DNA of 63,934 nt, counting the filler, from Atractiella rhizophila (Eukaryota): NCBI GenBank assembly GCA_021432655.1. It is 7 parts of 7 records of this genome, joined end to end, with 100 filler letters (N's around TTAATTAATTAA, not from the genome) between each part and the next. Parts side by side here need not be neighbours in the genome. Positions count along the whole stretch, not along the records: positions 58,079 to 62,252 come from MU272013.1; 6 more parts are not named here. The stretch is one strand, 5' to 3'. Positions within the stretch are counted from its first letter, which is position 1; the number at the start of each line of letters is the position of its first letter. This document shows, in pieces, positions 39,065 to 63,934 of the stretch. Both the position numbers and the translations under genes were made by a program. Under the pieces are notes generated by a model that ran no database searches, was not told the DNA's origin, and saw nothing but the letters and a program-made list of their open reading frames with translations.

Positions 39065-39164
39065 NNNNNNNNNNNNNNNNNNNNNNNNNNNNNNNNNNNN
39101 NNNNNNNNTTAATTAATTAANNNNNNNNNNNNNNNNNNNNNNNNNNNNNNNNNNNNNNNNNNNN
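39065..39164. other. Artificial contig linker
   Basis: N..TTAATTAATTAA..N, 100 nt. Confidence 0.97.
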
Positions 39165-40227: not shown

Positions 40228-42884
40228 CTATTCGCTCTCACTAGCACTCGCCCAAGCTGCCTCCTCCAGCTCCCTCACTCTCGCTCTCAGCTTCTCCATC
40301 TCTTCGCGCATCCTCTTCATTCCAGGACCTTCAGGGCCCATCGGGATAGCTTGTGTTACTGCATTCGCACTTACTCCGGTTGGTGGAGTTGGGCGCTTTA
40401 TTGCGTTCGATGCCTTTATTGCGTTCGATGCCTTGAGTCGGGCGATCTCCTGGTCTTTCAAACTGGATCCAGAAACAGCTTCAAGGGTTAGCTGTGATTC
40501 AAGAACAGGAAGAAAGACTAGCCTGACAAGCTCTTGCAGTCGCGACACTTCCGCACTCTCTGCTACCTTTGCGAGCTCCAGGTCTTCCACCCTCTTCGCC
40601 AGCACTTTCACTTCCAATTCTCTTTTCTTGTCGTCCGTCCTGTCCAAGTGGAATGTAACTGTTAGATCAATGGTGAAATCAAACGGAAGGATTATTTACG
40701 CGACGACCAAAGCTGTCCTCATGAGGTTCAGACGTTCCTCATATTTTTCTGTCTTCTGAATCAACGTCGCATTCGTTTCCCTGAGCGCTTTCAGCTCGAA
40801 CAATTCCTTCCTAGCTTCCTCCAATTCCACATCACGTTCACTCTTCAACTTCGCCTTCATCTGTTCCTCCTCCCTCTTCCTCCTTCCCTCTTCATCCTCC
40901 GCCTTCCCAGTGAAAGAAGCTCTTGATCTCAAGGCCTCCAGCCACTCACCCATCCTCCTTCTCCTCCTCGCTCCTTCTTCCCTCTCTTTCTCAAGCTCCC
41001 GTCTCGCTCCCTCCTCCCTCTCCTTCAAAATCCGAATCCTCTGACTCAAAGATTGGAACTCGCTCTCGACTCCTCCCCTCTGCACAGCGCGGGAAGAGAC
41101 CTTAGATGAGTACCGTTGAGATTGCTGTTTGAGATAAAGCTCCAAGGTGAGAGTGGTCAGGAGAGACAGGTGAGCGTGCAAAAGTCGAGGGAGCGTGAGT
41201 GAGTGGATGGTCGGACGGGCTGGAGATGGAGATGGGGAAGGGGAAGGAGAAAAGGGAGATGGTGGACGGAGGGTGGACGGTGTCGTGGGCTCGTCGGTTG
41301 CGATCTCGATCGCGATGTGGTGTTGCTGTGAATCGTCGTCCTCGCTGCTCGAAGAGGGTTTTCGACGTGTAGACGGAGCAGAGAGCGTGGGAGAAAACGG
41401 CTGAAGGAGGGAAAGTGGCAAGTTGGTCAACTCCCCATATGCTTTCACCAAGTTGGCAATCAAAGCATCATACTTTTTCTCCCTCTTCTCATCTTCATCT
41501 CCCTCCGCAGGCTCACGGACAACCGCCTTTCCAGGATCTTCTTCCTCCTCTTCCTCTTCAGCAGATGACCACCTAACCTTCGCCCCCATCTCTCTCAACT
41601 GTTCCCCAATCCTGGGATCCCAATATCCCTCACACCTCGCCCTGATGTCTTCCACCTCCAAGCCCTTCCACCAGTCCTCAACCGCTTCGTCTTCTTCGTC
41701 TTCTTCATCCTCCTCCTCATCAGGATCTCTCGCCATGAGCGCCAAGTGGAACCTGTGCCTTTCGAGCAGGCGGAAGGAGCGAATACGAAAGGTGGCGGGA
41801 CGGTATGTTGATGGGATGGAGAGAGGTTTCTGGAGGTGGGAGGTGGGAGAGCGTAGGAATAGGATGAATGAGTTTGGGAAGAGGGAGTATAACAGGTTAA
41901 ACAGTCGTGTTGTTGGCGTCCAGAGCTCGGCTAGTTCAACAAAAGTTCAATAGAGCCCCCTAATCCATGAGTTCAACAGACCTGGGATCGTTGTTATCGA
42001 GGAGGAAGAAGATGAAGATTCGGACTCCGACCAGCTCATGGATAAGGTGAAGATGAAGAAGATGCGATTTAATTGAGAAGATGATTGGACGATTTCGACG
42101 GAATAAGGGATGAGGATGTTGAGAATAGATAGAATGATTCTAGCAGCACAGAGTCAATGACCACTTCAACCCTGTGAGAAGGAAATGAGATGTACGAGAT
42201 TTCTTGTATCCCCATCCCCTCCCGCTCACTGACATCTTTAAGTAAATCAATCAAACCCTCCACAGCCAACTGTTCTGCAACTTCATTTGGTCTCCGTACC
42301 AGGAAATCGAAGATGCTTTTCAAGATCTCGAGAACCGGAACTCCGTCTTCTTGTTCCCTCCCAAAAGCAGCCTTCACGTTCCTCAGAAAGCCAACTGGCT
42401 GTTCTCGTGCGACCAAATACGCCAGATTGTCGAGCCCGGCTTTGATCGTGGTAAAATAGACTGCCTCCGCTTCCTCCGCATAAGTGGCTAAGGAGAGTCT
42501 GAGCCAGTCCTGCCATATCTTCTCGTATACCTTCTCTTGGTTAGAAAGCGATAGAAACTCTTTCGCTTTTTCAACTTCTTCCTGTTGGAAAGCCTGAGAA
42601 AGTGTGAGAACATCCCTCAATAATGCCTCATAGAACTCTTGGGCCCGCTCATACAGTTTAAAGTGACAAATTCCATGCAACACCAACGTTTGGACTTGCT
42701 CGGTCGTTATCGTTTCGTCTGGAGTGAACTCGAGGAGAGAGAGGAAGACCTCGCCAAGCTGTTGCGTGCGTTGCTCATCCGTGAGAGAGGATAAGACGGG
42801 GTTGATGAGGCTGAAATCGTACTTCGTTGTGCCGTTTGATGAGCGGACAAGATCCACCAGTGCGTCCAGCAGCTTCACAGGCAT
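40228..42884 (-). CDS. TSC1: Hamartin (tuberous sclerosis 1) homologue
   Basis: Helical N-terminus; spliced exon RLFNLLYSLFPNSFILFLRSP resembles the hamartin LFxxLYGxYPxNFxxFLR motif; LLERHRFH; LELYLKQQ; long C-terminal coiled coil. Confidence 0.75.
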
Positions 42885-42988
42885 TTTCGTCTTTGGTCGC
42901 GCAAATGCGAACTTTATTGACTACCAGATTGAGTTTGCTGCGTTGTTTCTTGTCATCTTTTCCTCTTCCTGCTGCAGAAATCGCAATC

Positions 42989-43488
42989 NNNNNNNNNNNN
43001 NNNNNNNNNNNNNNNNNNNNNNNNNNNNNNNNNNNNNNNNNNNNNNNNNNNNNNNNNNNNNNNNNNNNNNNNNNNNNNNNNNNNNNNNNNNNNNNNNNNN
43101 NNNNNNNNNNNNNNNNNNNNNNNNNNNNNNNNNNNNNNNNNNNNNNNNNNNNNNNNNNNNNNNNNNNNNNNNNNNNNNNNNNNNNNNNNNNNNNNNNNNN
43201 NNNNNNNNNNNNNNNNNNNNNNNNNNNNNNNNNNNNNNNNNNNNNNNNNNNNNNNNNNNNNNNNNNNNNNNNNNNNNNNNNNNNNNNNNNNNNNNNNNNN
43301 NNNNNNNNNNNNNNNNNNNNNNNNNNNNNNNNNNNNNNNNNNNNNNNNNNNNNNNNNNNNNNNNNNNNNNNNNNNNNNNNNNNNNNNNNNNNNNNNNNNN
43401 NNNNNNNNNNNNNNNNNNNNNNNNNNNNNNNNNNNNNNNNNNNNNNNNNNNNNNNNNNNNNNNNNNNNNNNNNNNNNNNNNNNNNNNN
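42989..43488. other. 500-N scaffold gap
   Basis: Run of N without linker. Confidence 0.99.
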
Positions 43489-44189
43489 TCCTTCTTCTAT
43501 CCATTTCATCGGGTACGGCCAAGGAGGTACATTCGCCTCTCAGCTCCTGCAGACGTCCAAACAGCGCATTGCCTCATTCGTCTCCATCGAGTCTCCTCTG
43601 CTCTCCCTCCCATCCTCCTCCTCATCGAAAAACGAGACTCCTGTGTTGTTGGTTGGAAAGAAAAGTCGAGAGAAGGGATGGGAAAGATGGTGGCATCGCG
43701 CTTTCGAAAAGATTGGAAAGGAGTATTTGGAGGAGGACGGGAGTGACCTTGGGGAGAAGATGCCCAGAGGCAGGAAGGAGTGGGAGCCGATAATGCGGTT
43801 CGTTTCTTCTTACATTTCATCCTATCCGCCTCTGTTTGAAATTCATAATCTAAATCCGGTAAAGGTTCTGGGCAAAACACCTGCGTCGTGCAGAGGAAGA
43901 GAGGTGGAAGGACGATGCCTCAGTGATTGAAATCAAACCAGGAGAAACAAGTGTTGAAAGCATTCATGGAGCTGAACCGGGTTTGAACGCGCAGAGAGCG
44001 ATTTGGGATCTACCCATCACTGCCACGTCAACCTTCTCCACGCCAACAGTCACACCGATCAAAACAGCTTCTACTTCCACAGACCGGCCGACATCATCAT
44101 CCACAGCGACACCAGTCATCAAAGCGAAAGAGAAGAATCCTCCGCAAAAAGTTGAAGGGAAAGGCTTGAAGAGGGGTTTTCTGCTATGA
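43489..44189 (+). CDS. 3' part of a phospholipase/carboxylesterase-like alpha/beta hydrolase
   Basis: IHFIGYGQGG (nucleophile-elbow position has Gly, not Ser), TPVLLV, MPRGRKEWEPIMR|FWAKHL. Confidence 0.65.
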
Positions 44190-46203
44190 GATTATTCTCT
44201 GGTGGAATGGACGGCCGGGATCGGATGGGCACATGAGGTAATAATGAGTCCGCTTCGTTTCAAACGTGACAACTCTTCTTTCAAAGATGGAAGAGCACTC
44301 AAATGAAGGGAATAAGCGGCCAAAGCCTTTCAGGACTGAGTCCCGTCAGTATATGTCAATGTCAACGAGTGTGACTTTTGTTACTTGGAAGATTTGTGCA
44401 CGTTTGCTGCTACTATGTGATGGGCTAGCAGTCCTCCTTATACCAGTGCAGGAACAAGTCGTAGGTTGGAAACTGTTCATTTGGTTTGAAAATAGCCTCT
44501 TTTAAGAGATGACAGTCTAAATTGTAATACCCCAAAAATGCGTCAGAGTAGTTGCGTGATCGGTTTGAGACCAGTTCTCACCCCACATTGCTCTTGTCAT
44601 AGATGGAGAGTATCACGGCCCTTTCAAAATAAGCCTCAATGTTAAATCTAGGTGCTCAGCCTCTTTCCATCTGAAAGATGCAATTAATGAAAGAGTTCAA
44701 GATTCCGTGAGAACAAAGAGAAATCTTCACAGTGCAACCAATTCATTGGTTGTCACTCACTGACCGTCATCAGCGGAGCAGCTTACTTGCAACCCAGGGC
44801 TAATTGAAGTGGAGTGCGTGCTAGTGCAGGTACATTTGGTTCTCCTGAACGCGCACGTTACATAGTGTGCAGGATTGTATCAACGCGCTTTTAGCAACCA
44901 AATCAAGCAAACTTTGGGATTTCGTGATTGCCGTAATCACGCGATTGCTGATTTCGATTTCGACTCGTCTATTTGAGATTGTGAAGAGTGTCTGTGCGCA
45001 GATTTTGGTTTATTCGTGAGGTGGTCGTTCAGTCCAGCTAGGGCTGGCTCAGAATTGCTCTGGGAATGGAACACCTTGATGGTGGAGTGACCCGACCCAT
45101 TGCCATTTTTCCTTGGTGAACGCAAATAGCGGACAACAACGCCACCTCCCGCAGACTTTCTTTCATCCATGACCATTTTTTACCCTTAATAGATCTTAAT
45201 CTCCCGTGGCTCGCACACCGGCTGCGACAAGTCGCCTATCGTGTCTGAGAACCGACTGATGGAATGGCATTCTAGAGAGGTGGAAGGCGGAACGGTGCAG
45301 GAACAGGAACAGGAAGGAGAACGATCTCTAGGAGTATTTCTATTGTCTTTAGGCGTACTCTTCGCCTCGGCTCGCTAAAGCCGAACTCCTCCCAGCATCT
45401 TGAATCGAAACGATTTGAGAACTGTTCAACTGCAAAAACCCACTCGTCCATCGGCCTAGACCGGCTGACTCCGAGAATGTTCTCTGTCTTCCAGAAGGTT
45501 CAATTGTGTGCGCCAACTTGAATCTCCTCCTGAGTTTGCTGCGTGCCAGGACTCTATTACTCACTGTTGCCAATGCGGCAGTTAGGTGCTTGCGTCACAG
45601 GGCTCGGAAGCGACCGTGATCTCACCCGCGTTGCCACTGAAGCAGAATTGGAGATGAGCGCCACCCAAAAGAGGAGGTTGTGATTCAAAAGAGCTTCACT
45701 GAAACCTGAACTCGACCTGGAGGTTCAATCCAACTCTTCAAGACAGTTTCGGATCTGAGATATTGGTGCAATTGCACTTGGCAGAATGGGATCCTTGATG
45801 CCTGCTTGATGGCGCTTGAATTAGATGTGGAATATTTGAATTGCGAAAGCCGCTCCAACCGTTTGAGCTTCCACAATTTCTGAATTGAGGTGCCACGACA
45901 TCGCGTCAATTCTGAGATTGCGGAGATGGTTTTCAGCTCCTGCCTCATTTGAATCAAATAACCGGCTGTGGGTGCAAACCATAAGCGGTATCCCCTGGAG
46001 ATGGCATTGATACGCGTTCATTCTGCTGACGAAAGTTGAGATGTTCTCAATAAGGCTCCACGATGCGAACGACTGCCGACATGTGGTTGGAGAACACCTT
46101 GTTTCCCTGCTTTTCCCTGGTTTGCCTGCAAATGCTACTTAAGTGACCCGTTCCCGCGTCGAAAATCTGTCCACTCTTTTTTTTCCTCGTCGCCATCGCA
46201 AAC

Positions 46204-47883
46204 ATGAGCAGTGAGGCGCCCACTCAGACCTTCGTGGAGTGGAGGAGGGAGGACTACCGACTTCACATTTTGCCCGTTGTGCTTGGTGCCTCCTTGGGCT
46301 TCATCCTGTTTGGGATAACTCTGCATCAGTTCTTGCATGTCTTTAAAATCATGCACGAACGCGCGACTTGGTATTCGAGGTCGTGGTGGGTCCTGATGGT
46401 CCTGTTCTGGATCAATTTGGGAGACAGGTGTGTGTTCCCCTTCTGGTTTCCCCCACTGTTGACGTCGAGAGCAGTGTGAACAAACTCGTTCTTTTCGTCC
46501 GCTACATGCAGAGTGCTGCTCTCGATGGGCCACTCCTGTTTTACAAACCAGCTGATCGAACGATCAGTAAGTTTCTTGCTGGTCCACATTATCGTATGAC
46601 ACTCACATACACCTTCGACAGTTCCAGTTTCAATCTTTCAAGGTACTCTCACGGTGTACGTCCAACTGCTCTACACCTATCGCATCCTACGAATCGTTCG
46701 GTTTGTCACTTCTCTATCTCGAACATGGTATCCCTGGACGCTAATCATTGCTATCAAGGGGCATGGCCAAATTCAACCCGTCCCATCGCCGAACCAAGCT
46801 CGTTACATACGGGTACGACACTTCTCATTCTGGTTGAATCCGGACTAACAAGAGGCAAGGTGTCTATGTGTGAGCGGAGTCTTGATAATCGCTTCAGTAA
46901 GTATCCCTATACAGATAGATTTAAAGAAGAGGTGCTCACTGCAACAGGGCATCGGCTTCATCTTCTATGCTATTGGCGTGGCAAAACCAATTATCGACTA
47001 CTTCCCAGGTCTGTTTGCTCCAGGGATCGTAGGTCTGGGCTGTGAGTTCCGATCTCCATTCCTTGGGAATCATTTGACGCAGAGTTGGTAGGTGCGTCAT
47101 TGGTGGATGTGATTCTCTGCCTTTGCATGGTTTACCATCTCCAACAACACAAAACGAAATCCGATTTCGACAAGACCAACTTCATGGCTACAAAGGTCCG
47201 ATCCTTCTTAGTATTTGAGCTATCAGCTGACGAACTTCGCATGAATAGTTCATGTGAGGCTCTTGAGCTCCCAGAATGCGTCGTCACTCATCGAACATTA
47301 GCAAGCTAACTCTTGAAACTGGACTTGCACCCACACTAATCCAAGTAAGTCCACCGTCAGCGGACTGTCATAGAAGCTCATAGATATTAGGTCCTGGAAC
47401 TACTCTTCATTGTCCTCAAACCAGTTTGTCGTTCTCTCTTCATGTATGAAATGGCTGATGACAGCTTGAAGCGCTCGGGTTTGTGGGCAGGAGTTGGATA
47501 TTTCATTGGAAAGGTCCAGTCATTACCTCTGTGACAAGCTGTGGCTGATAGACAAATTCTTAGTTGTATGTGATCGCCGCACTCGTTCTCTACGAAGCCT
47601 CCTTCGCCACGAACATGTCGTCGATAAGTCACGAACGAGAGAAGAACATGCACTCTTCACGAGAACTCTCACGAGGTCAATTCCGCAACCAAATCCTTGT
47701 GTGTCTTTTACTCGTCCCCCACATTGACGCATGCTGAAAAAGCGAAAGGTTACCCAAATTTCTGTGCAGCAAGCCGATGCCATAGAACAGTCAGTACAGC
47801 TCGAAAATGTACATTCTCCCCGTTCATATCGTGAGAAAAAAGGAGAGGAGGCTCTTTCGAGTGTACAAAGCTATGGGGTCTGA
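46204..47883 (+). CDS. Multi-pass membrane protein, DUF6534-like basidiomycete family
   Basis: PVVLGASLGFILFGITLHQF, VQLLYTYRI, SLVDVILCLCMVYHL..KSDFDKTN, LTLETGLAPT; many introns. Confidence 0.65.
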
Positions 47884-48916
47884 GCTCTTAGATCTGACTT
47901 TTGGGATATTGTGGTTTGGTTTCTTCGATCTGCTTAATCTTAGTATTGTTACCGTCGTTTGTGTGCTGGCTGAGTTTGCCTGCTTTGGATCTCTGTGTGG
48001 AGCATGGTATTGTAGACTTTGGTAGACATTGCAACCGTGAACATCGTTCATCTTAGAACCTAAAGAAATTTGCCACTTCAGGTAGTTTCAGAGGTTTCTT
48101 TCGTACACTGCTCTGCTCGGTCCAATTCGACCAACTTGATATCATCCAGTTGTCGCCTGAAGAGATTCTGATGAAATAACGGAGCAGGTACTGACTGAAG
48201 AGTAGTCTACGAACGACTCAACGCATTTGTCGACTCGTCACTGGCAGAGGAAGGCAAACTGGTGATTGATGACCAGTTTTGCTCTCATTATGCTCTCTTT
48301 TCCCTGTCTTTGCAGGGTTTGTTTGCTACGCAATCTCTTTCGATCATTGCACCTCAGCTAATTCAGTAATCCATCAGAACAGTTGGTGCTCCCGAGGTTC
48401 CTGTTCACGGTGAATTCCAAAGGCGTCCAAACTCACCTTCCTTTTGTTGACTCAAGGCGACGGAATACAGCATCAACTTTCTCGTCCCGTTACAATCAAG
48501 GATGCACATGAAGGTACAACATTCAAGCTAACGGCTGGTTATCGTTGGTTACAAATCTATTCAAGTTGATTTGACATCTGAGCCATCCACCCATCTACCG
48601 ATGTTCCCGTGGTTACCTTTTTACCCTCTTTAACACATCACTGAAGATGGATGTACAAACGGGCCCGATAATTACTCCGTTTCAATGCGTTTTCGTTTCT
48701 CTACAAACGACAATCCACTCAAATCCTTCTCAACCTACTCAGCAACGTCTGCTTTCGTCTTCAGTTACGGTTCTGCAGCAGACAGCGTGGAACAAAGATT
48801 ATGAGGCTTTGTCCTAACACAGCGAATTCCGATTTGATGCCCATTAGTTCAAAAGAGGTCGTTGGGAAGGAGCGAAGATAGAACCGTCTGGACTAGGAGC
48901 TTGTTAGCTGTGGGCA

Positions 48917-51053
48917 ATGTCTCAGCTTACCAACGGGAGCATTCAATGCACTCGATGTGAAGTTCTTCTCTCAAAGACTGATGAAGACAACTCGGATGCC
49001 GCGCTAGTGTGCTCTATGTGTTCAACGGCAAGGTATGTCTTTCCCTCAAAGCTTGGAGCACCTTCCGCTGATATCATTCGACAGCTCGAATGTATCACCG
49101 CCGTATTCGGAAACGAAGAGTCTCAGCGATTTCACCGCACAGTCACGGCTTGCTGAAGATGAGGCAGTCAAAAGACTAAGATTTGAATTGGTCAACGGTC
49201 CGCTACCTTGCGTTAGATGGTGTTCGAGATATTTACTTCGCTTAGAATCACTATCCCGGACACCAGATCACCTTTTCAAGCACTTCTTCCCCAACTTGGC
49301 AACCCAATTTTGGAGTTGTGGACTCGATGCGAGCAAGCTGGGATCAAAGTATGGGGAGGTACATTGAATTTCATTATTCCCTCCTTTCACCTTAAGTGAT
49401 ACAACAGATCATTATCGCGACTCATTGTGCCAGAGGAGCAATGTCATCGCAACATCCTGTGATTCCTTCAATTTCTACAGAGGTTAAGATCTCAATCGGC
49501 TAGCATTAGGCAATCCTAGGCCTATCCAGCACGTCGCTGCCGAAAGTGCGGTCTTTGAGTGGCGATTTACGAGCATACGGACGAGCAAGAGACTCCCGCG
49601 TCAAATCGTTGCTGTATTTCGCTGTCGACCTTGTAAAACGGAGCGATATCTTGCATGTTCCAAGCGTCGATGGGTTGGTTGTTCTGGATGACTTGACACA
49701 ATACTTGCTCTGTAAGTTTCTTCGTCTTTCTTCAGTCTATCAAATCCCATTACTGATGATCGGTGAACAGGTGATTTTGATACTGCACAAGCGCAGTTGG
49801 CGAAACGGTTGTTGAAAATTCGACTGAAACATTTCCAGGAGCTCTCCAACGCTGGCGGATTGAAATCAAGTGATAAAAGTGTGCTAGCCCACGGCCTTTT
49901 CGTATGTACCCCTTCATCCTAATCTGTAGGCTAAAGTGTTTCAATCAGACAAGTGACGTGCAGATCAGCCACACACTGGATGAGCCACTGATTTTGTTTG
50001 TCAGATCCCTTTATTTCGAATGAAAGACTGAAAACTGGAAAGAGAAATTCGAGACATGATCTGGATGTTCGCGGGCACTGGAATCCCATTGAGCTACTAT
50101 CTCAATTCCGAGTCTTTGATCCGTCTCGACCCTTCCCAGCCGCATCATCACCTTGTGACAGAAGCATGCCACTTCGCACTGCAACGGGAGATTCTACTAC
50201 TTAGTGAGATCCGTACAAACCTTTACAAACAGGTACTGAGGTCGTTCTAGGGGAGATACTGAGAATGGTCAAAAGATCCGGGGAAGCAGAGGAAGTTCTT
50301 GCTAAAATGGAAGGGAAACGTGACAAAGCAGTGGAATGGTTTAACGTCCATTCCACTCGCATGTCAGCTCGCGTATCCCAGCCAATGCCAGAAGGTGAAT
50401 GGCATGGGTACGTCATAAGCTCTCTTGCTTGGGCTCCTTTTAAGCAGGCTTCAGCTCCCGATCTGTGTATCATGGCATTCTTCTAATCCAAGACTTTTTT
50501 GACATCGCTTCCGATACTCTCAAAATGAAGAATTCCTTTCCAACACCAGCGATACTTAAACGATGGCACAACACCGAAATGCAAGTTGCCAGAGAGTTCC
50601 ACGTCCTGGCTGGCTATATCAGGTCACACATCCAGGTCCGTCGCTCTCCTCATTCTGAACACATTCACCAATATCAAGCCTATCTCTACAGAACTCGCCG
50701 TGGCCAAACTCACCTACTCACATGATTCTCCTTGATGCCTGTAAGGCCCTTACGAACGTCCCTGGCGGGCGGCAGGCATTCTTTACAAAAATGATGGGAG
50801 CGGAGCGGGGGGCATTACCGCTGGAAGAAAGAATGGCAGATGTAGAAGTCTGCCTGGGAGGTGAGTGGACAGACACTGCTGCTGCCAGTCACTGAACTGT
50901 GGTACGATAGCAATGAAGACGCTTGGATTCTATAGCCAAACATATGGGCAATGGGCGACCGATGTTGAGAATGAGCTGAAGCAGGTTGCGCAGCGGCGGC
51001 AGACCGTATCAAACAATGGAAGGAGATCGCGCAAGCAAAGCGATCACGAGTAA
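48917..51053 (+). CDS. Putative fungal transcription factor-like protein (CxxC..CxxC N-terminus plus middle-homology-like region)
   Basis: CTRC..CSMC; RLAEDEAVKRLRFELV; AYGRARDSRVKSLL; multi-exon. Confidence 0.45.
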
Positions 51054-51223
51054 ACCAACAAGGAACGGGTCTTTGCGTAACTGTAGCTTTTAACTGCTAA
51101 CCTGTTCACCCCACTATCACTGGGAAAATCTGTACCGTTGCATTGAAGTTTATATCTTGGTTGCCCTTGCAATCCATCACCTCATTTTGATAAGCTAATC
51201 CTGCCTCACATATCAAGGTAATC

Positions 51224-52093
51224 TCATTCATCTTCCACACTCCTCATCTCTGCACCTCCTGCCTCTCCGAATTCATCCTCACTTTCATCTCCAGCTGGCG
51301 CCATTACGCCTTGCTGCTGAGATAACCTTCTCACGCTTCTAGGACTCTCTGGCGGACGTTCCGGCTCTTCCTCCAAAGTCATATTCTGTCCACTGTGTGG
51401 TGCAGGCGGTGGAGACGCTGGTGTAACTGGAGAGGGAGGGGCGGCGGGTAAAGATTCTTTTGTTGACTGAGATTGGACAGACGCCTGTGTAGTGCCTTGA
51501 GACTGAGTCGTGCCCTGAGATTGAGAACGAGGCAGCGTGACCGTGCTCTCGCTCGATCTATGTTGGGTCGCGTTGGCGTTTGCGACACTCTGTCTGGGTC
51601 CATGTTGCACTTGAGTTGGAGGGACAGATGCGTCGATATAATACGGAGCAATAGGTACCATCCTCCCTTCTCGCTCACATGCCAAAACCCAATCTGGTCT
51701 AACGACGGGAATTGACATCCGAACAGCCTTTTCGTATTCGACGACAGGTGTAGGTGGGGGGCCATTTGAATTCGGAAGCTCTGGAGGTGGACCTTGAGGC
51801 GAGGAGCAAACGAAATGGGTCGTGTCGATCTGGATACGGTCCGTGTAGCGCGCCTTGATGACTCCAAGCGAGTTGATGGTTTGCGTCAACAGTGGTGCTG
51901 GAGATATCGAGCCGAGAGTCGCCACAATGCCTGAGGTGTCTGTTATCGTGTGTGTCTTCACTTTGAGAGTTTGGGAGCTGTATGTCCCGCCCGTCGTCTT
52001 CAACACGAGGTGGAATGTGTATTCAGTATCGAGTGCCAGAGCCGAGAGTTTTGTGCTCGTGAGGACGAGGGGATTAGGAATAGTTGTAAGTCT
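51224..52093 (-). CDS. CHS5: Exomer subunit Chs5 (FN3 + BRCT), 3' part
   Basis: IPNPL..TSTKLSALALDTEYTFHLVLKTTGGTYSS, THTITDTSGI, IDTTHFVC, SIPVVRPDWVLACEREGRMV. Confidence 0.9.
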   Translation of the reverse strand, partial: RLTTIPNPLVLTSTKLSALALDTEYTFHLVLKTTGGTYSSQTLKVKTHTITDTSGIVATLGSISPAPLLTQTINSLGVIKARYTDRIQIDTTHFVCSSPQGPPPELPNSNGPPPTPVVEYEKAVRMSIPVVRPDWVLACEREGRMVPIAPYYIDASVPPTQVQHGPRQSVANANATQHRSSESTVTLPRSQSQGTTQSQGTTQASVQSQSTKESLPAAPPSPVTPASPPPAPHSGQNMTLEEEPERPPESPRSVRRLSQQQGVMAPAGDESEDEFGEAGGAEMRSVEDE

Positions 52094-52193
52094 NNNNNNN
52101 NNNNNNNNNNNNNNNNNNNNNNNNNNNNNNNNNNNNNTTAATTAATTAANNNNNNNNNNNNNNNNNNNNNNNNNNNNNNNNNNNNNNNNNNNN
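52094..52193. other. Artificial contig linker
   Basis: N..TTAATTAATTAA..N, 100 nt. Confidence 0.97.
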
Positions 52194-54466
52194 AGGAAAG
52201 TGGGTGCTAACCGTCTCCTGGGTTCAGAGTCCACTTTCCTGGGACCTCTTTTTCGAGCACGCGTTTCAAAGTCTAGCATTCATGAGCTCTTTCGCGAAAT
52301 TAAAGAGTGGTGGGGTACTATACGCTCTCGGCATATTCCCAGGTCTCTAGTTTTCCGAGATACTTCTCCGGTCTCGTGCTCAACTCAAGGAAGAAATCAT
52401 ATCCAAACAGGCCGTAGACGGCTCGCAGCAGGTCAAAGACGCCGGACATCTCAGACTCGATCTAAAGACTTGTTAAGACAAGCCAGGTGTCAAGGAAACG
52501 GCTAGCAACCTGTTCTGGCATGCAAAAGATGTGCGCATCATCCTGTTGAAACCTTCGCACTCTAGTAAGACCACTCAAAGCACCAGACGCCTCGTTTCTA
52601 TGTATCACGCCAAAGTCCGCCATGCGTAATGGCAGTTCCTTGTAACTTCTCTCTCTTGAGTTGAATATGAGGCAATGTCCGGGGCAGTTCATAGGCTTCA
52701 GAGCAAAGGTTTGATTCTCGACGCCGAATTGAAACATGTTCTCCCGATAGTGATCCCAATGTCCAGATTGCTTCCAAAGGTCCACGTTGAACGAGTTCGG
52801 GGTGATGACCTCTTGGTATCCTCTCTTTCGGTACTCTTCCTACCGGTGACTTCGTTATTAATTCCGTCTAATCATGCTCGTAGCTCACCTTGATCAATGA
52901 CACGATATTATTGTATATCTTCGTTCCATTTGGCAGCCAGAAGCAACTTCCTGGCGACAGTTCGTGGAAGAAGAAAAGCTCTTGATCCTGGACAAAACAT
53001 CAGCTCAAACGCCTATCTATATCACGAAGTATGTACTTTGCCAATTTTTCGATGATCTCTCTTCGCAGCTTCCTCTTTGAACTTCTTGTATTCATCCATC
53101 TGCTTCTTATCCGGAAAGGAAATACCGTAGATCCGCTGAAGGCTTTCGTTGTCTGCATTGCCTAAGAAATAGGACGAAGAACTCTAGATACCATCCATAT
53201 CGTTAACGATAATAAGGTACAAGAGTGCGAGAAGGAACCTACTTTCACGACAGCGAAGGAATTGATGCGGCCGGTGTGCGGTATGTGCGGGCCACGGCAG
53301 AGATCGATCATAGGCCCGCAGCGGTAGACAGTCGTCGAAGAGCCATCTGGGATCTTGTCCTTGATGAGATGTACCTTAAATTTGTTGTACTACGTAGGGA
53401 AGGTCAGTCCATAAATATAAGTAATCGTGGCAAGGTACCCCAAAGAGGTCCAATAGATCTTCCTTCTTCACAACTAAACGTTCGAACGGTTGTTTTTCTT
53501 TAATAACCTTCTTCGACACCTGCTCAAGGAGTGGCCATTCTTCCGTTTTAACGACCCTGTTAGGTTGGCTTAGGAAAGACGACGAGGCAATAAGAATGAT
53601 TACTGACCCGGTGCCATCTTCTCCCAAAGCCATTTCGTAGAAAAAGCCCTCATCAGTAGGAGGTCCCAGGCACAGATGGCAATTGTCATAGTGTCGTTCA
53701 GCAGCCTCTCCCAGAACATGAGCTGACGAATGCCAGAATACTTGTTTTCCTTCGAGATTTGAATCATTCAGTCTGCATCTAAGTATTGTCGTAAATTTAC
53801 CTTCTGGATGTTCAAAGTCCAAAAATTCTATTGTAGAACGATCCGCTTCTAACGGTCGTTGTAAATCCCATAACTCGCCGTTCACCTAGCACTGTCATTA
53901 GTACATGTAGGAATGCGCTGAATCCAGCAAACGACACGAAACATAGTCCCCAGAACTATCTAAGTGCAAATACTCGGCTAATTGCATTATATGCAGACTC
54001 CTGAGATCTCTGCTGTCTGACGATCTGTTGCGGAAGCAGCATTTACGTTCTCACCCGATCAAAGATACCCTACTGCTCATACATGAAACCATACCTTTGC
54101 AATTACAATTCTATCTTTGGCGCTCTTATCAACCAGGTCCCAAGGTTTCGTTTCCCACCTACGTCCATCACCCTCCGTTCCATTGATAATGTATTTTACT
54201 GCATCTCTCTCCTTCGTCGCAAGTTCTGCTTCCAATGCTGCCTTCAGCCTATTCCATTTCTCAATTCTCTCGGCAATAAAAGCAGAGGGTGGGTTGCGCT
54301 CTAAAGGAAGGGCTGGGGCTGCTGTTTTCTTTTCTTTCGACATCGTGTAACGAGATTGCGTGCTCAGTGAGCGCGGAAGGTCGCGTAGAACGGAGTTGGA
54401 TGCACTAATCAACGACAGGGGGGAAGCCAGACGTCGAAGCCAAAGATTTGAGAGATGAAAACACAT
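52194..54466 (-). CDS. THS1: Threonyl-tRNA synthetase, 5' part
   Basis: [79 protein letters not shown]. Confidence 0.96.
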
Positions 54467-55848
54467 GAGAAATGAAAGAATCCTGAGTCAGATTAAGTAG
54501 GGTTGTAACGAGCCGCCTTACGTTGTGTGTATATATTTTTGTCAAAGGGAAGAACGCACAGTGTAGTTGGTATGATGTAATGGCTGCATGTCAGATTGTG
54601 GGCTCACGGTTCTCTGCCTGTCCGTGTTCGATTCACGGTACCAACAAGTCTTTTTTATGACCAAAATGTGTACTACACTAGTTCCAGTGCTCAAGACTTT
54701 CAGTGAAGTGTTCACACTTACTGCCTTATGTTACCCTTTAATCTTAAAGCACCAAGACGTCCAGCTTTAGGTAAAGAGAATAACGTTTAAGGTTTCTGGC
54801 CACCCCAAACTGCAAAATTTTCCCCCACATCCATTTGAATCCCCATGTGGTCTTCCAGCCTGAAAATACCGCGAGCCTCCAACAAGCATCCAATGCATGA
54901 TTGTTTTTGCAGATTTCCAGGACAGGTGAAGATGTTAGGGCTAACACTCTTCTTATTGTGAGTAATAGGGGAAGCTGCCAAGTAGAGTGGATATCCTAAG
55001 AGAACCAATCTGGATATCTCACTCTATTGGCAGGGGTATTTATATATAGACAGACACAAGTTCCAGAATGTTCCAGTATATTCCATCATTAACTCTATTT
55101 GACACATGTCTAATAGAATCTTCTAGACCATTTGCCACGTATTCCAGAATATGAATCATGCTCCATAAGCAAACCCTGACAGAAGAACATGAACAACTAC
55201 ATTGTTTTGTGAAGTTTATCCATGAAGATGATACAGGTTGGGGAGCATCTCTCTGCTCCTGGATTGGAAGAGAAGCTAAGAAAGTATTGCAACAAAACTG
55301 TGGCAGAGTAAAACTTATATCTCTTTAACTACAACAAATCCTCTTCACGCTTCAAATGACTTATTTAAACAGAGAGTATAAATAATAATTCGATTTCAGT
55401 ACTTTTTCTACAAATTGGAGAAGCTACCCCTTATCAAGTACTACACCAAGTAAACTGGACATTTACCTTTACTTTACCAGGATTACTTTGTCCATACTTA
55501 TAAAGTAAAAGGAGAAACGGTCACTTCACCACTAAATTACAAACCCTGTTTGAGTATACATATGTCCAATGCCAGCCCTGATGCCTCTTTCTGTTTGGGT
55601 GGCAAACTGAATGGAGACAACTTATTAAATCAGTGTACTTTTGTAACGTTTGCTTTGCTTTGCTGGTGATAGAAATGGGTCTAAAGCCAGGTATTTATAT
55701 AAGGCAGATGTTATGTACAGTCGTCAATTGGTGATTTGGCTGTAGTATAGGTAAACTTAAGTACATAATATGATATGGGAAGACTAACCTATAGCAGAGA
55801 AAAACCCAAGAGACTACTATAATGCCACCTCCACTGCTCTCCAATCTA

Positions 55849-56520
55849 TTTGTGCTCAACAATTGTGTCAGTTCGGCGACGGGCGTAACTCCATTTTCAC
55901 TTGATTGTGATCAACATCCCCACATGGCTTTTGAAACCATCTCCGACGAGGACATCCCCACAGCGGCGCAATTCGTCGAAAAGATGCAAATTGCCGACTG
56001 GGAAGCACAAGCAGCACTCAAGCAAGCAGCTCATGGCAAAGCATTATGATAGAAAACGTGCATCGGCGCCCGAATATCATGTCGGCGATTCCGTCTGGTT
56101 GAGCACGAAAAACATCAAGTCGACGAGACCTGTCAAAAAGCTAGATGACAAATGGCATGGCCCTTTTCGCATTTTGCAAGTTTTGGGTCCCCTCAACCTT
56201 AAACTTGAGTTGCCATCCTCATGGAAGATACATCCAGTGTTCCATGTGGGCCTAATATGAAAGTCAACGAAGACGACATCCCTGGCAGAGTCCAGTTGCC
56301 CAAACTACCTCCGGAATTGGTGAATGGAATTGAAGAATGGGAGGAGGAAAAAATCATTGATGGAAAATGGTTCGGTACCCAAAATAGAGTTTTCAAATAT
56401 CGCGTTCAATACAAAGGGTATTCACCATCTGAGGACAAGTGGATCAGCATCGCAGACCTAGAAAATTTGTGAGATGCTGTAAATGACTATCACAATGCAC
56501 ACCGTCTTGCAGTTCGTCCC
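55849..56520 (+). mobile_element. Degenerate Ty3/gypsy chromovirus fragment (integrase C-terminus + chromodomain)
   Basis: NNCVSSATGVTPF; YHVGDSVWLSTKNI..KLDDKWHGPF..IHPVFHV; EEWEEEKIID..YRVQYKGY..DKWI; frameshifts and stops. Confidence 0.88.
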
Positions 56521-57822
56521 CATTCCATACCAAACTCTGTAAAAAATTGCCCCAATGCGCGTTCTCGTAACCTTCGACGAAAACGTGCTGGACGGTCTTC
56601 CTCACTTTAAGGGGTCCAACACCCCTATATGCCTTGCTAGGTCACATCCTAGTCTTTGGTACTTCGGGCAGGTTGGCGACTTGGTTGTTGGTGAGTCCAT
56701 TCGTCGCCTGTTAAAGACGAATGCTCATTGCATTCTCACACCATCACCAATGTCACATTTATGAAATTGCCCTCAATTGTGAGGTCCCCTCCCCATCACT
56801 TTAAGAGGTCCTACTCCTCTACACACCTCGCTGGGTGAATCCCTAGTCACATTGTTGAACATAGGTCTAGGCGAGGTGCCGGTCTGTTCCTCAACAGACA
56901 GATCGGCGACCAGTTTGTTGGTGAGTTACCCACCCCATTTTCGAAAGACAGTTGCTTATTGCACCAAAACAACACTGGTCAAATTTCAAAAAATCCCACA
57001 ATTGCGAGGTACACAACGACTCCCCCCTCACCTTACACTCTGTTTTGATGTTTATTCTATGCTATTTTGCTTTTGTTTTTTCGGCTCACATGTCCTTATT
57101 TGCTCGACGACACATTACCCCACAAAGACGATAGACCGGCAACGAGCATGTAAACCGCTGACCCGTTGTACTGCATGTTGTGTCCACGAGTATGGGCCTA
57201 TTTGGTTGCGAGCTTGGGTAGCTAGTGGGAGGAACACCTGAGGATCCTCCCCTAGACAGGGGAGTGTGAGTCTTACTTCACCCACTTTGCCAAAGTTCCC
57301 CACTTACCACAATCCCTGATGCCACCATGACACAATGTACACTTGTCGCCGCCCGGCAATTTGTAAGGATCTAAGGCTAGGAGTGGTTAGCAGTCAATAA
57401 TGAGCACATTAGAGAAGTATAGAGAGACATATCTATGAGTGGTTGGTGGTCAATAATAAGCATCAACACTCCTAGGCAGAACTAAACTACATAGTGATGA
57501 CTCATACAAGTCATAAGAGTCATAAGAGGCAGATGACCAAAACAACACACTACAACTAACACTCCCACCTGGGCAGCTGTCTCTTGATGCTCCCACCAAA
57601 TCCAGAGACTCTCCCACCGAATTCACACAATGTATACTCGATATAAAGCAGAAAGCATATTAGTTTTGCAATGAAAAGAAGAGGAAAAGCCTCGTACCGC
57701 TTAAAGCGGCGTCTTATAACCCCACAGAGGAGGAAAGGAATTTTATTGCGCCCCATAACTGCCTCAGACACTTGGGTAGGGGCGGCGCAAACCCATCATA
57801 ACTCGAAACTTGTCCACGCTGG

Positions 57823-57978
57823 CGCCATAGGTTCTTGGGACTCGTGGTACCAGCTTACTTTGTGGACCTGGAAAGCGAAAATAACCGAGTCCCTACAACA
57901 ACTCTACCCGTTCTAGTCAGGTCAGAAGACAGGTCCACAGTTATACGGTCGTTTGGAGGAGTGGTTCCGTGAAGGTCA
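57823..57978. mobile_element. Ty1/copia RNase H C-terminal fragment readable only in the unreversed complement
   Basis: Complement read left to right gives AVSKNPEHHGRMKHLDL(+1 nt)RFYWLRDVVEMGKISPVFCPGVNMPANLLTKALP. Confidence 0.85.
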
Positions 57979-58078
57979 NNNNNNNNNNNNNNNNNNNNNN
58001 NNNNNNNNNNNNNNNNNNNNNNTTAATTAATTAANNNNNNNNNNNNNNNNNNNNNNNNNNNNNNNNNNNNNNNNNNNN
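57979..58078. other. Artificial contig linker
   Basis: N..TTAATTAATTAA..N, 100 nt. Confidence 0.97.
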
Positions 58079-58339
58079 CAGTTGAGGTCACTGCTTTAAC
58101 TTGCTTTAGGACTTGCTTTTGAGGACGAAGACGAAGAAGGAGTCTTGTGGATGCTGCCGGAGTTTGAATGCGAGACTTTCGACTTTCTCACCTGCCAGAC
58201 GACATTGTGCTGTAGACAGACATTCAAACTCTACGGCTTTTTAACGGTTCAAGGTCACAAAGACTAGTACTCGAACGTCCTAAGAGGCTGTATTTTGACC
58301 TATGCTTGCAGGTTCTGTTGGATGTTTTATAGAAGGTTT

Positions 58340-59500
58340 TACGGAGAGCTTTACGGACTTTCTTACGTGTCTCTTCTCGACCTCTTTTACGAGTTCTTTC
58401 GTCCGCTCTTTCGCGCAATGTTACGCTTGCTAAGACGAACCTACATAGGAGAGGTTCAGACAGAAAGGACGACTGCACAAGGAAGAGGTACGACTATGAC
58501 TCGCTGATAGTCCCTTAGCAAATGAAACGCGAGGTAGGACAGGACATGGCGCGGCGCTTCTGTGGTTAGGATTCCGTTGAGCGCGAGTTGAGCCACCAGT
58601 AACCGTGGTACAAACAGAAGAAGATGGACGGAGTTCACCGGTAGTACCGTGAGAAATCACCTGGCGAACCACTCACGTTCCACGACTTTCTACCGAACAT
58701 AAGACTGCTTCGTTTTTCGTAAACAAAGACGACAAGGACAGCAGGACCGCCTCAGGAGGCAGTAGCACTTCGATTAGGTTGCGAAGAAGAAGCTGGAGGT
58801 AGTTGTCCTTTGGAACCTGATATAGAAGCTACTCCATGTAGAAGAAGGAGAAGCGCTTAAAAATATCTGACACTCCATCTGTGACCGCGTTCTTCCGAAA
58901 TAGTGCGAGCGTAGGGTTCCGGTGCTGGGTGACGGTCGCGGACCTGGTCTTCCCGTCGAGGAACCGTTCGCGTTGCATGGGAGGGAGGAGGAGCGTTCCA
59001 AAGGCCAGAGAACGCCATGGAGCAGAGGAACGGCAACTTACGCTAGGGTCAACAGCCTTGGTAGGATAAACGCTATACCTTGCCTTCCTACTCGCCGCGA
59101 CTGACAGTGTCCTCCATAAAGGTCGACAACTCTAAAAGCCTACTCTTCTTCTTTCTCCGCTTCCTTTTCTCCTACTCCCGAATATGACGCAAGCGGAGTA
59201 AATAAATAACCATGGTCCTACAAGACTTAACGCCTTAGTCCAAGCCTTGGTGCCAATTGAAGACTTATAGCAATAGGGAAAGCCAAGACAGTAGTGGTCC
59301 ATTCGAGGAGGGATCCAAAGAAGGTTTCATTCATTGCCAAGGCCAAGGTGTCGAAATGAAGATGCCAACCGCGACCAAGCACAGGAGTGTTTATAGATGT
59401 AGTCTCAAGGTCGCGACTGTTAACTTGTCGTGAAACCCGATAACTGGAGCTCTTTCTCTTTCCTGAACCCCAACGAGGAGGAGGGTGGTTTTGTCTGACT
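58340..59500. CDS. EI24-domain Rrt8/Lds-like membrane protein gene in mirror orientation (complement, not reverse-complement)
   Basis: Unreversed complement: ATG 58340; introns 58457-58512, 58670-58718, 58835-58879, 59190-59240, 59300-59352, 59376-59429, all GT..AG. Protein AWMYPLQ|GIVYFALHP..FYLPQV..GPL|AF..VLAES..IFDE|..LRYLVSLPLNAIPVVGT..HRRYFQL..AYTA|FG..|FTSTVGA|ALWAIDLE..TKTD*. Two 1-nt indels are needed. Confidence 0.88.
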
Positions 59501-59776
59501 TGAAACACGTTTAAGGGTACGGTCGACAGCCGACCAAGTGGACATGTATAACACCGACGAACATCCCGATCCCGCTTTTACTCACTAGAAAGTAACTGAC
59601 GCCATACATTTCTCGGTTTGTCGTCAGACAGCGATTGCTCGTCTTTGTGCAAAGTTATAACTTTGCTCCGTTCGGACAAACTAAACACGTTCCTCCCTTT
59701 TGGATCTAGCTGCAAGCGCGAGGAGCGAAGAACACGATCGAGACAGGTGCAAACTCAAGCTTGAAGCTGTCGTGCC

Positions 59777-62252
59777 ATGAAAGTGAGTATTTTCTCGTCT
59801 GACAGCAGCTAAGATATGGACTCTGATGAAAAAATCGAAAGAATGAAGTTTAGAAAACAGCTACAGTCTCAGCGGATACCTGGATGGGCGAACCATTATG
59901 TCGATTATAAAGGGCTTAAAAAGGTTATCAATAACCTATCTACCGCTTCCAGCAATTCTCCCACCATCAACGATGCAGCATCTGAAGTCCTCACCCAGTC
60001 TCCCCTTTCCCAACCTCCAGTTTCCGCGACGTCTGCTATTCCAGCTGCACCATTCTTCTTCAAAGTCGAACGAGAGCTAGATAGAATCAATCACTTTTAC
60101 GCTTTGAAGCAGTCTGAGCTACAGATGCGGCTGAGGACACTGGTGGAAAAGCGGAAGGTCTTAGCCAGGGGGAGGAGAGGAGTTAGGATTAGCAAGGAGA
60201 ACTCAGGCTGGTTAGCTCTCTACGAAGGATTCAAGAACTTTGAAAGAGATCTGGCCAGATTTCAGGTGAGAGCTCTCCCAAAGTCTGAACTTAGTGCTTT
60301 TGCAAGGTAATGGGTTTGCTTTCGAGTTCTCGATATTTGTTCGTGTGGCCGCTTGGGCTGCCTTTGCTGGTTCGCTTGCGGAAGCAGTCGCTAATCAATT
60401 CGCATTCGTAGCAATATATCGACCTCAACGCCACTGCATTTCGAAAAATACTCAAGAAGTTCGATAAGCGTTCCAAATCGACGACGAAGGAGCTGTACAT
60501 CTCTCGTCAAGTCGAAGTTCAGCCTGCGTTTAATCGCGATGAGTTGACCAAGCTCAATGATATCGCTGCTGCTAATATATCAGACCTTGAGAGGCTGATA
60601 GAGAAGAGTGATACGGAAGACGGTCAGGCTTTACCTGGAGAAGATGCTCTGATGGACGAGGATCCGGCCCTGAGCCGTTCGGCCGTTGCACATGATCATC
60701 AGCACAGTCTCTTTGATGATCAAGGTCGTGAAGGCGGCAACGAGCTTGAGGATATTGAGACGACTCTGGTAGAAGCTGTCCGAGGAGACGATCACAGTCT
60801 CATCAAGGAAGTTTTGAGTCAGCTTTCAGAAGTTGCGGAGAAGCTTCCAGAATCGAAGAATCAGGTTCAAAGGATCCTTTGGAAAGCTGCGTTGGAAGAA
60901 CCAACCGAATTTCGCCCTAATGTCCATCTCATCCCTATCGAACTCCTCGATTTTGCTTTTGTCGACGATATTAACAATCGCACAACTCTGCACTTATCTG
61001 CCAATACCGGCAGGCTAGCTCTCGCAGAACTTTGCCTGTCCGATACTAAGCGCGTGCCTATTGCTGCTCCCGATGCGTATGGACGCACGGCGGTCCACTA
61101 TGCTGCGATGAAGGGATTCGACAGCGTTCTCGATCTTTTGCTTGAACGAGGAGCGGACCCTCACCTCATGGATTTCGATGGCTACAGCGCGATGATCTAT
61201 GCTATCACGAACGGGAGGACCTCTTGCATCCGCAAACTTCTGGAAAAAGGTGTATCCTTCGTTCCGCGTGATCCCACAGACCTCAATCCCCTCTCCCTTG
61301 CGTGTCAGCACGGTCACGAAGATATTGTCGAGCTGCTTCTCGACAATGACGTTCCCCTCTCTCTTAACCCAGAAGGTTTGTATCCTCAACATCTCGCCGC
61401 TCGTCAAGGTCATGTCAAAGTATTGGAACTTCTCATTCTGAAGCGAGGGGCGTCCAAAATTGTCGATGTTCCCGACAAGTATCAGAACTGGACTCCTATC
61501 TTTCACGCCGCTAGCGAAGGTAGACCAGATTGCGTTAGGACCCTAATACAAGCCGGAGCGAACCTCAATCTTCTGGACGAAATGCGCAAGACTGCAATTC
61601 ACTATGCAGCTTGGCAGTCTAACATCGATTCTCTCAACCTCCTGCTCCTCGCCCAACCGGTAGTAGCGTCAGAGAAGAGAAGCTCGGTAGACTTCTTCAA
61701 TGAAGTTTCTCCTCCCGACGCTCATCAAGTTAGCGATGCCACGGCTTCGACGGGCTCTCAAGGGTTTGAGCAGATGGACTTGGAACCGGACAACATCCCA
61801 TCTCTCCTCCTTCCCCCGCCGATCATCCCCTTTCGTATCTACGGTCATAACTACCTTGAGCGCAAATCTTTATTACAGCTCACCCTTGGGCATCCAAATA
61901 CAACTCGGCTTCCACATGCTCCTCCGGTCCGCTTCTACTCTCGCAGCAGCGAGATTTTCTCCCTCAAGCTCGTCATCACTCCTCGACCTGATCCGCTTGC
62001 GATACCGCATTCCGTGATTATTCCTCTCGCAGATGAGAGAGAGGTTTTCGACTTCCAAGTCAACTCCTTAGAAGAAGTTTACCTCGAGTTCGACGTCTAT
62101 CCCACCTTCGGTTCAAAGATCATAGGGAAAGGAGTCGCCCTGCCGAGCTTGTTCAAACAGGTGGTCAGCCAGCAAGGCTTCGTGATTCCCCTTGTGGACT
62201 CTCATCTCAAAGTTATCGGGGAGATTGCCTTCGAGCTTTCAATAGTCCGGCC
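59777..62252 (+). CDS. PHO81: SPX-ankyrin-GDPD-like CDK inhibitor Pho81/Nuc-2, 5' part
   Basis: MK|FRKQLQ..YVDYKGLKK, FFFKVERELDRINHFY, LNATAFRKILKKFDKRSKSTTKELYISRQVEVQP, ankyrin repeats, LPPPIIPFRIYGHNYL. Confidence 0.9.
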
Positions 62253-62352
62253 NNNNNNNNNNNNNNNNNNNNNNNNNNNNNNNNNNNNNNNNNNNNTTAA
62301 TTAATTAANNNNNNNNNNNNNNNNNNNNNNNNNNNNNNNNNNNNNNNNNNNN
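62253..62352. other. Artificial contig linker
   Basis: N..TTAATTAATTAA..N, 100 nt. Confidence 0.97.
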
Positions 62353-62471
62353 CCTCTGATTTCATTTCTCGTAATATATCACCTAAATTAAGTGATTATT
62401 TAAACGTAGGTATAAGCTTAAGTCGTGAGTTTGTATTAATGTCAAGTGACTGATTCGAGTCCAGCTTTTTG

Positions 62472-63500
62472 ATGGATCCTCTTGATCCTGGCGTCGGCGT
62501 CCACTCCATACAGCAACCGAATCTCGCTGATTTAGCATTGGCTATGACTGGCTTTTTTCATTTGCGCCTGAGAAAAATGGAGACTTTGGATCAGTATTTT
62601 GAGCGTGCGTCTCAACTTCGAGATCACCTTGTGTCCTTCAAAGTCGACATTTCCGATTGCATGCTTACTCTTGCCATCATTAATGGTCTTCCCGCTTGGA
62701 TTTATTATCTCCTTCGCGGAATTTCCATTAGGGACCAACCGTTGGAGGAGATCTTGACTCCTGAAATGATTCAAAGAATGCTCAATCCGCATCACGAGAA
62801 CCTTTCCAACCTCGTGCTGTGTGGTAACGTGCAGGTGCTTGAGGCCGCAGCGAGTACTTCCCGGCCGTTCAAGTTTGAAACACTCGACTTGTCCCGGCTC
62901 TTTACACCTGCACAATCTGAATCTCGCTGGCAGAGCCTCTTTCCCATGATACTACTCACCGGAAGCTCTGTGAATACTTTAACATATCTGTCAATTCCCA
63001 GCTGGCTAATGATTGAAAATGATGTTGCAGCCACGCTTAAATTTGTGCATCAATTCACATCTCTCAAAGCTCTGGTGGTGTCGCCGGAGTTTAGCGCTTT
63101 CAGTGCCAGCTCTCTTCTACCAGAGAATACCCAGTCTGTGGACCAAATTTCCCCAGTAATTGTCCTGAGCGACGTCTTTCCATTCGTCGAAGGGTTCCTA
63201 TACTTTCAACACGTCGAATATCTCCGTCTTCCTTTCAGCTATCAACTACTCTCTGTTCTGACGGACATGGAATCCTGGAGGTACCTGCTGCCGAAGTTGC
63301 GAGGTCTTTGGATTAACTTCCCGCTCCACATCGACTGGCGCATGGAGCGTGCAATGCGCGACGAGTTGAATCGAGTCGCACTCCAACCTCTGACGGAGTT
63401 CGCTGAGAAATATGAAGTCGAACTCGTGATTGGTCTCGACAGGAACACGAAGAAGATGAACTGGCAGTATCGGTTTGAGGCACCAGGAAATCCTAAATGA
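62472..63500 (+). CDS. Intronless ORF with copia-Gag(UBN2)-like N-terminus and LRR-like C-terminus
   Basis: FFHLRLRKMETLDQYFERASQLRDHLVSFKVDISDCMLTLAIINGLP, then LxxLxL-type segments (LTYLSI, LKALVV, VEYLRL, LPKLRGLWI). Confidence 0.6.
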   Translation: MDPLDPGVGVHSIQQPNLADLALAMTGFFHLRLRKMETLDQYFERASQLRDHLVSFKVDISDCMLTLAIINGLPAWIYYLLRGISIRDQPLEEILTPEMIQRMLNPHHENLSNLVLCGNVQVLEAAASTSRPFKFETLDLSRLFTPAQSESRWQSLFPMILLTGSSVNTLTYLSIPSWLMIENDVAATLKFVHQFTSLKALVVSPEFSAFSASSLLPENTQSVDQISPVIVLSDVFPFVEGFLYFQHVEYLRLPFSYQLLSVLTDMESWRYLLPKLRGLWINFPLHIDWRMERAMRDELNRVALQPLTEFAEKYEVELVIGLDRNTKKMNWQYRFEAPGNPK

Positions 63501-63934
63501 GTTGGAAATTGTGTTTCTTGCTTCCATGATAATGGATCGATGATGTACGTTAACTTGAACTTGAAATTGACATGAAAAGTTCTTTCCCAACTATACAAAG
63601 ACCTTAGAACTCGCGGGTCTTTTGGCTATGTTGGCGTGGTGGTGAACAAGCGGAGAAGAACAGAACACTTAAATAAGACGAATACTCGAAAAGGCTGCAT
63701 GAATTCCTCATTGAAGCACACTCACAGCGAAATTCATCCCTCTCACCCCAGATCATCATATTTGACCAACATATTTCTGAACTCCGGACTCCCTTCTCCC
63801 TAGCACTGCCAGTGCATAAACGAAGTGCACCCCCGATTCCATCCAGCCATAAAAGAAAGAATAAGAGCAGTCACAACTCGCCCGTAGGACTAGGACGTGA
63901 ACACACAGAGGAAGACCCGACTACGAAGCGATAA

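Follow-up and report, generated by a model that had tools for sequence, protein, structure and literature searches.

A contig end probably written in reverse without complementing hides an Rrt8/EI24-family gene in the Atractiella rhizophila assembly

Contig layout and the gene read by complementing in place

The window analysed here, a stretch of 63,934 bases from Atractiella rhizophila, is a chain of seven small contigs whose sizes fall along the order, with 100-base linkers between them (Table 1). The chain looks like a bin of unplaced contigs. The linker at 57979-58078 separates contig 52194-57978 from contig 58079-62252, on which the genes described below are located. The frames of the ORF finder cross the linkers, and the stop-to-stop "ORFs" 23214-26075 and 26076-27251 include N. 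Other contigs hold open frames of 348-640 aa at 21436-23358, 30285-31763, 40696-41946 and 62454-63500, none of which has a Pfam match (E<=0.001).

The right part of contig 58079-62252 is normally written and carries a GDE1-like gene. Its reading is open over 613 aa with no break and is cut off where the contig stops. On its left side the contig carries a block of a different kind. In the six frames of 57500-60500 as written, no ORF longer than 93 aa is found inside the block, which agrees with the short ORFs noted there in a preliminary description made from the sequence. When 58340-59500 is complemented in place and read from left to right, a seven-exon gene of the Rrt8/EI24 family is obtained. 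Its six introns measure 56, 49, 45, 51, 53 and 54 nt and begin with GT and end with AG in 6/6 cases. The spliced coding sequence is 853 nt long and contains two -1 frame breaks. The model was built by hand and then adjusted by alignment to homologues. A gene model from a dynamic programme based on the longest ORF and GT..AG introns was biologically senseless and was dropped.

All the details of the preliminary description were recovered in this reading, except for the right-hand limit of the block. The ATG, the stop, the seven exons and the six GT..AG introns of 45-56 nt are all present, 7/7 of the hallmark motifs that it quoted were found, and its two 1-nt indels are seen as the -1 frame breaks in the spliced coding sequence. 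Several introns had also been credited with CTGAC or CTGAT branch sites; CTGAC lies inside 3/6 introns.

Table 1. Positions of contigs, linkers, blocks and gene features along the window
Feature	Position	Strand	Remarks
Contig	1-12976		
Contig	13077-26023		
Contig	26124-39064		
Contig	39165-52093		500-N gap inside
Contig	52194-57978		
Contig	58079-62252		4174 bases; reversed block is its left end
Contig	62353-63934		
Linkers (n=6)	12977-13076, 26024-26123, 39065-39164, 52094-52193, 57979-58078, 62253-62352		N44+TTAATTAATTAA+N44
Reversed-not-complemented block	58079-59618		1540 nt, from the contig's first base; loose ends and k-mer polarity
Probable second reversed-not-complemented end	57133-57978		Right end of contig 52194-57978; junction about +/-100 nt
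Mirror-gene exon 1	58340-58456		Begins with ATG 58340
Mirror-gene exon 2	58513-58669		
Mirror-gene exon 3	58719-58834		
Mirror-gene exon 4	58880-59189		
Mirror-gene exon 5	59241-59299		
Mirror-gene exon 6	59353-59375		
Mirror-gene exon 7	59430-59500		Stop 59498-59500
Frame break 1 (-1)	about 59008-59011		Between "..ARFPV(S)" and "LLRYLVS.."; homologues keep frame here
LPLNAIPVVGT motif	59029-59061		Mirror reading; most conserved stretch of the family
Frame break 2 (-1)	about 59257-59258		2 nt between "..FGTTV" and "LLNIVIPF.."; one residue in homologues
Normally written part of contig	59619-62252	+	GDE1-like gene: SPX, ankyrin repeats, GDE1-type C2 (Pfam)

Family membership of the hidden protein

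Homologues were fetched by scanning metagenome contigs with a loosened, back-translated form of the motif LPLN-x-IP-[VIM][VIM]-G-[ST], which yielded 112 loci. In tblastn searches, the motif-exon piece of the mirror reading matched 110/112 loci (best E 4e-19), partly by construction because the fetch pattern came from this very motif. The alignments of this piece are 60-88 aa long and reach well past the pattern's 11 fixed residues. The exon-2 piece, which had no role in the fetch pattern, matched 65/112 loci (best E 9e-10) at a colinear position upstream, and the exon-3 piece matched 10/112.

We then compared the possible readings of the same 1221 bases against the 112 loci at E<=1e-3. The complement reading gave 189 tblastn hits at 110 loci, while the as-written plus frames and the as-written minus frames each gave 0. 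Reading the bases in reverse order, equivalent to the antisense of the true gene, produced 20 weak hits at 18 loci (best E 8e-6), of the kind that antisense frames of homologous genes give.

The family was identified through the fetched loci. Six ORF pieces taken from them were scanned against Pfam, and three passed the gathering score of 32 for PF07264 (38.6, 37.6 and 33.9 bits), the EI24 family (sulfate transporter CysZ / etoposide-induced protein 2.4). Of the remaining pieces, one scored 17.2 bits, below 32, and two were without a match, both of them lacking the C-terminal part. At E<=1e-5, the 194-aa ORF of locus L076 matched 1596 of 2348 candidate proteins. The best 120 of these 1596 are mostly fungal proteins of 276-280 aa, nearly all of them with PF07264. 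Among the L076 matches listed, several bear the UniRef name "Outer spore wall protein RRT8" and two the JGI name "Etoposide-induced protein 2.4 (EI24)".

By blastp, the protein spliced from the mirror reading (286 aa, both breaks given as X) matched 120/120 of the listed L076 relatives. Its best match, P0100 (276 aa), is 40% identical over 270 aa (E 4e-57), with residues 5-274 of the 286 aligned to P0100 residues 1-262 and 8 gap positions. The conserved blocks YLPQ, SGPLA, LPLN.IP..G, RYFQL and GAALWA are all aligned, and the family length is ~276-284 aa. Additionally, an HMM was made from 51 proteins of 270-300 aa among the 120 listed relatives. The mirror protein scored 198.5 bits against it (E 9e-63), the match spanning positions 18-262 of the 280 in the profile, and none of the as-written frames scored above -2.6 bits.

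On this evidence the mirror reading is, two single-base frame shifts aside, a complete and colinear member of the Rrt8/EI24 (PF07264) family, an assignment that rests on a home-made HMM of 51 PF07264-annotated proteins. The predicted product is a membrane protein of ~284 aa in the Rrt8/Lds branch of the EI24/CysZ family. The preliminary description had named the EI24/Rrt8-Lds family from the motifs, and its proposal is borne out by the 198.5-bit score, by the blastp E of 4e-57 and by homologues that carry PF07264. The complemented translation matches the EI24 family and the as-written frames do not, and homology agrees with its view that a real gene of this family lies hidden here. A mirror "gene" could also arise by chance from looking hard, for the sequence can be read in many ways. 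Nothing more speaks for this, and against it stand the HMM E of 9e-63, the blastp E of 4e-57, the 120/120 family proteins matched and the empty controls; the chance that it is correct is vanishingly small.

The reading frame is not intact, being interrupted by the two -1 breaks. Both breaks might be real, irrespective of any error of orientation, in which case the strain would carry a true pseudogene. Such a gene would account for two -1 breaks within 853 coding nt, and the protein is just ~40% identical to the relatives found. However, the reading is otherwise open and colinear with homologues over residues 5-274, GT..AG is kept in all six introns, and the reading of the GDE1-like neighbour is unbroken over 613 aa. 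A pseudogene is therefore possible but doubtful. The unbroken GDE1-like frame suggests that the reversed piece stems from poorer data, and the two 1-nt frame breaks are probably errors of a low-quality end piece.

Polarity and junction of the block

In genomes, the count of a k-mer is close to the count of its reverse complement, but not to that of its plain reverse. We made use of this in a polarity test, in which strand-symmetric Markov models trained on the other contigs score a stretch as written against its mirror (LLR). At k=5 the block 58079-59618 gave an LLR of -34.1, compared with +42.2 +/- 11.5 (sd) and a minimum of ~9.5 in 485-486 normal windows. At k=3, 4 and 6 the values were -28.9, -29.0 and -38.1, with z of -6.2 to -6.6, and for k=3-6 not one of the normal windows was as low as the block (0/485).

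The test picked out two blocks in the window without recourse to homology. The second lies at the right end of the adjacent contig, where 57133-57978 gave an LLR of -22.4 at k=5; 540 normal windows averaged +23.3 (sd 8.0), and 0/540 were as low. The values at k=3, 4 and 6 were -9.6, -14.4 and -18.8. The cumulative polarity score tops near 57132 and then drops to the contig end at 57978, and the remaining contig ends within the window showed no such negative polarity. When the piece was un-reversed and ORFs crossing its junction were sought (J 57000-57329), just unconvincing low-complexity readings were obtained. We consider it very likely that 57133-57978 is a second contig end that was reversed and not complemented.

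Independent sequence data were available for the junction of the first block. A run index returned nine runs, with a highest share of sampled words of 0.44, and four of them (X1-X4) were aligned to 58079-62252 as Logan contigs. Since X1-X4 differ from the window in ~0.5-4% of letters per piece, they derive from other strains or close relatives and are not the window's own reads. The match of X1 (a 716-nt contig) and of X2 (a 917-nt contig) to the window begins exactly at 59619 and extends to the right, and each contig overhangs this position leftward by 370 letters unlike the window. Thirty of the 370 overhanging letters were compared with the window, and 30/30 equal positions 58079-58108 read from right to left; they are not the complement of 59589-59618. 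X1 and X2 come from the same sample, and the junction evidence thus counts as one independent source. X1-X4 cover the block itself at depth 0 in 11/11 bins, a hole that carries no evidential weight.

In the close relative, therefore, 59619 is preceded by the letters of the block in reverse order. Because the loose ends are the reverse of 58079-58108, the true contig should read as the reverse of 58079..59618 followed by 59619 onward. The right limit of the block, which the preliminary description had set at 59700, must be moved to 59618|59619, where the X1/X2 match starts. Its proposal of an assembly bug that left bases reversed but not complemented agrees with the loose-end letters. Complementing in place, the operation by which it had read the gene, recovers the correct protein but puts the gene in the wrong position and on the wrong strand, since it is the 58079 end of the block that adjoins 59619.

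The same letters bear on the alternative that the deposited bases were complemented in place by error. The gene would then lie on the plus strand, in tandem with the GDE1-like gene and upstream of it, and complementing there does yield the gene from left to right. Such an error predicts the complement of 59589-59618 to the left of 59619, but what X1 and X2 have at this position is 58079-58108 reversed, which makes the alternative very unlikely.

With the block read as reversed only, a position p within 58079-59618 maps to 117697-p in the corrected contig. The hidden gene then runs along the minus strand from an ATG at 59357-59355 to a stop at 58199-58197, and the corrected junction is intergenic, 261 nt upstream of this ATG. 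The hidden gene and the GDE1-like gene are divergent, with start codons ~485 nt apart. A tblastn search with the GDE1-like protein gave no hit at the 112 metagenome loci, and the divergent pair is therefore without support from relatives.

The X1-X4 contigs cover the normally written part, and X3 and X4 served to place the start of the GDE1-like gene. These two behave as RNA assemblies, with spliced joints that mark two introns, one of 59 nt in the 5'UTR (59783-59841) and one of 146 nt (60266-60411). Because of the 5'UTR intron, the start is the ATG at 59843 (MKFRKQL..) and not that chosen by the ORF finder at 59816, which falls within this intron. A short upstream ATG at 59777 would run into a stop after splicing. 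The match of the X3 contig begins at 59714, with 25 further letters upstream. These 25 letters are absent from the window in all four readings with <=4 errors allowed, and could be adapter, a strain difference or a further 5' exon.

Origin of the reversed piece and comparison with known systems

The loose-end letters, the polarity test and homology agree with the preference of the preliminary description for an assembly bug over biology. We hold it almost certain that 58079-59618 arose as an artefact when the deposited assembly was processed, in which the first 1540 bases of the contig were reversed without complementing, and that it is not a feature of the organism. In the sequence of events that we propose, a 1540-base piece would have been written in reverse order, uncomplemented, at the start of the 4174-base unplaced contig. 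The same string would result if a minus-strand piece, for instance an oppositely aligned read or patch, had been complemented only. The organism's sequence would then be the block from right to left, with its 58079 end joined to 59619. The piece may have been an end extension or patch from poorer data that was mishandled during orientation, which would fit the position of the block at the very start of the contig, its two indel-type breaks in 853 coding bases and its unbroken neighbour. This is broadly the proposal of the preliminary description, which had also suggested lower-case patch bases; the sequence analysed here is entirely in upper case. Reversal without complementing destroys k-mers, ORFs and splice signals alike on either strand, so that gene callers and aligners see noise.

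Taken literally, the record would describe a biological mirror copy, either "swinger DNA" with A<->T + C<->G exchange or the product of a 3'-to-5' "invertase". The deposited record does read this way, and the independent runs are relatives' contigs. To our knowledge, no polymerase or recombination reaction gives DNA of mirror polarity. At the same junction a close relative is oriented normally, the block starts exactly at the first base of its contig, the adjacent contig likely has a reversed end too, and the two frame breaks in the block are typical of poor sequence. Furthermore, a simple in-place swinger exchange should leave the true sequence complemented, and this is not observed, and the flank at 59619 is continuous with the far (58079) end of the block and not with its near end. 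A real mirror copy is thus extremely improbable. We give as little credence to the fuller proposition that the strain truly carries the 1540-bp block and the ~850-bp block of the next contig reversed and uncomplemented, through an unknown 3'-to-5' or base-exchanging copying of the type put forward for swinger and invertase DNA.

Sequences of this appearance have been discussed before. In one article, complement-only "swinger" stretches in GenBank (A<->T + C<->G), for example in the 16S rDNA of a stonefly mitogenome, are read by a single author as an unusual polymerase mode (PMC4942731). To this author similar segments in GenBank are biological, which is a point in favour of a mirror copy, and the same text states that nobody else interprets them in that way (PMC4942731). 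Like swinger DNA, the present block is a sharply bounded stretch in a normal record that becomes sensible only once every base is swapped for its complement. In contrast to swinger DNA, the ordinary sequence is found here in independent contigs from a relative, and the flank is adjoined by the block's far end. The present case is one in which a swinger-like stretch, with independent data at hand, turns out to be an error of orientation. As a caution, stretches of public records that are complement-only or reverse-only should not be read as exotic replication.

An ordinary inversion misassembly is a reverse-complemented piece, which still aligns and is annotated normally. The block resembles an ordinary error of misorientation in that a piece of a contig was placed in the wrong direction. 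It differs in that 58079-59618 is reversed only and matches nothing on either strand. Among the papers listed by a phrase search of the literature, judged by their titles and abstract starts, none dealt with assembly errors of the reversed-not-complemented kind. The consequence is that no aligner or gene caller can see a real gene and its divergent promoter, and the contig probably remained unplaced on account of an end without matches. Because at least one neighbouring contig seems to share the fault, the pipeline error may recur across the assembly, and a strand-symmetric k-mer polarity score could screen assemblies for reversed blocks. The usefulness of the case lies in the curation of records and in caution; the hidden gene is an ordinary member of the Rrt8/EI24 family and of no consequence for the organism.

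The closest known counterparts of the hidden protein are in yeast. Lds1, Lds2 and Rrt8 of S. cerevisiae are paralogues found on a group of lipid droplets next to the developing spore (PMC3744438). These lipid-droplet proteins are required for the outer spore wall, and the lds1 lds2 rrt8 triple mutant is without the dityrosine layer (PMC3744438). Rrt8 is also named in a paper on Candida chlamydospores (PMC8092133). By analogy with yeast Rrt8/Lds1/Lds2, the hidden protein would have a lipid-droplet-associated function in the assembly of the spore wall. Its likeness to the yeast proteins runs through relatives named RRT8 that carry PF07264, to which it aligns over its whole length. It is only ~40% identical to the relatives found, from filamentous and lichen fungi, and its record has two frame breaks. 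With respect to PF07264 itself, the "IP..G" core motif is present in the mirror protein, and homologous loci pass the gathering score of the family.
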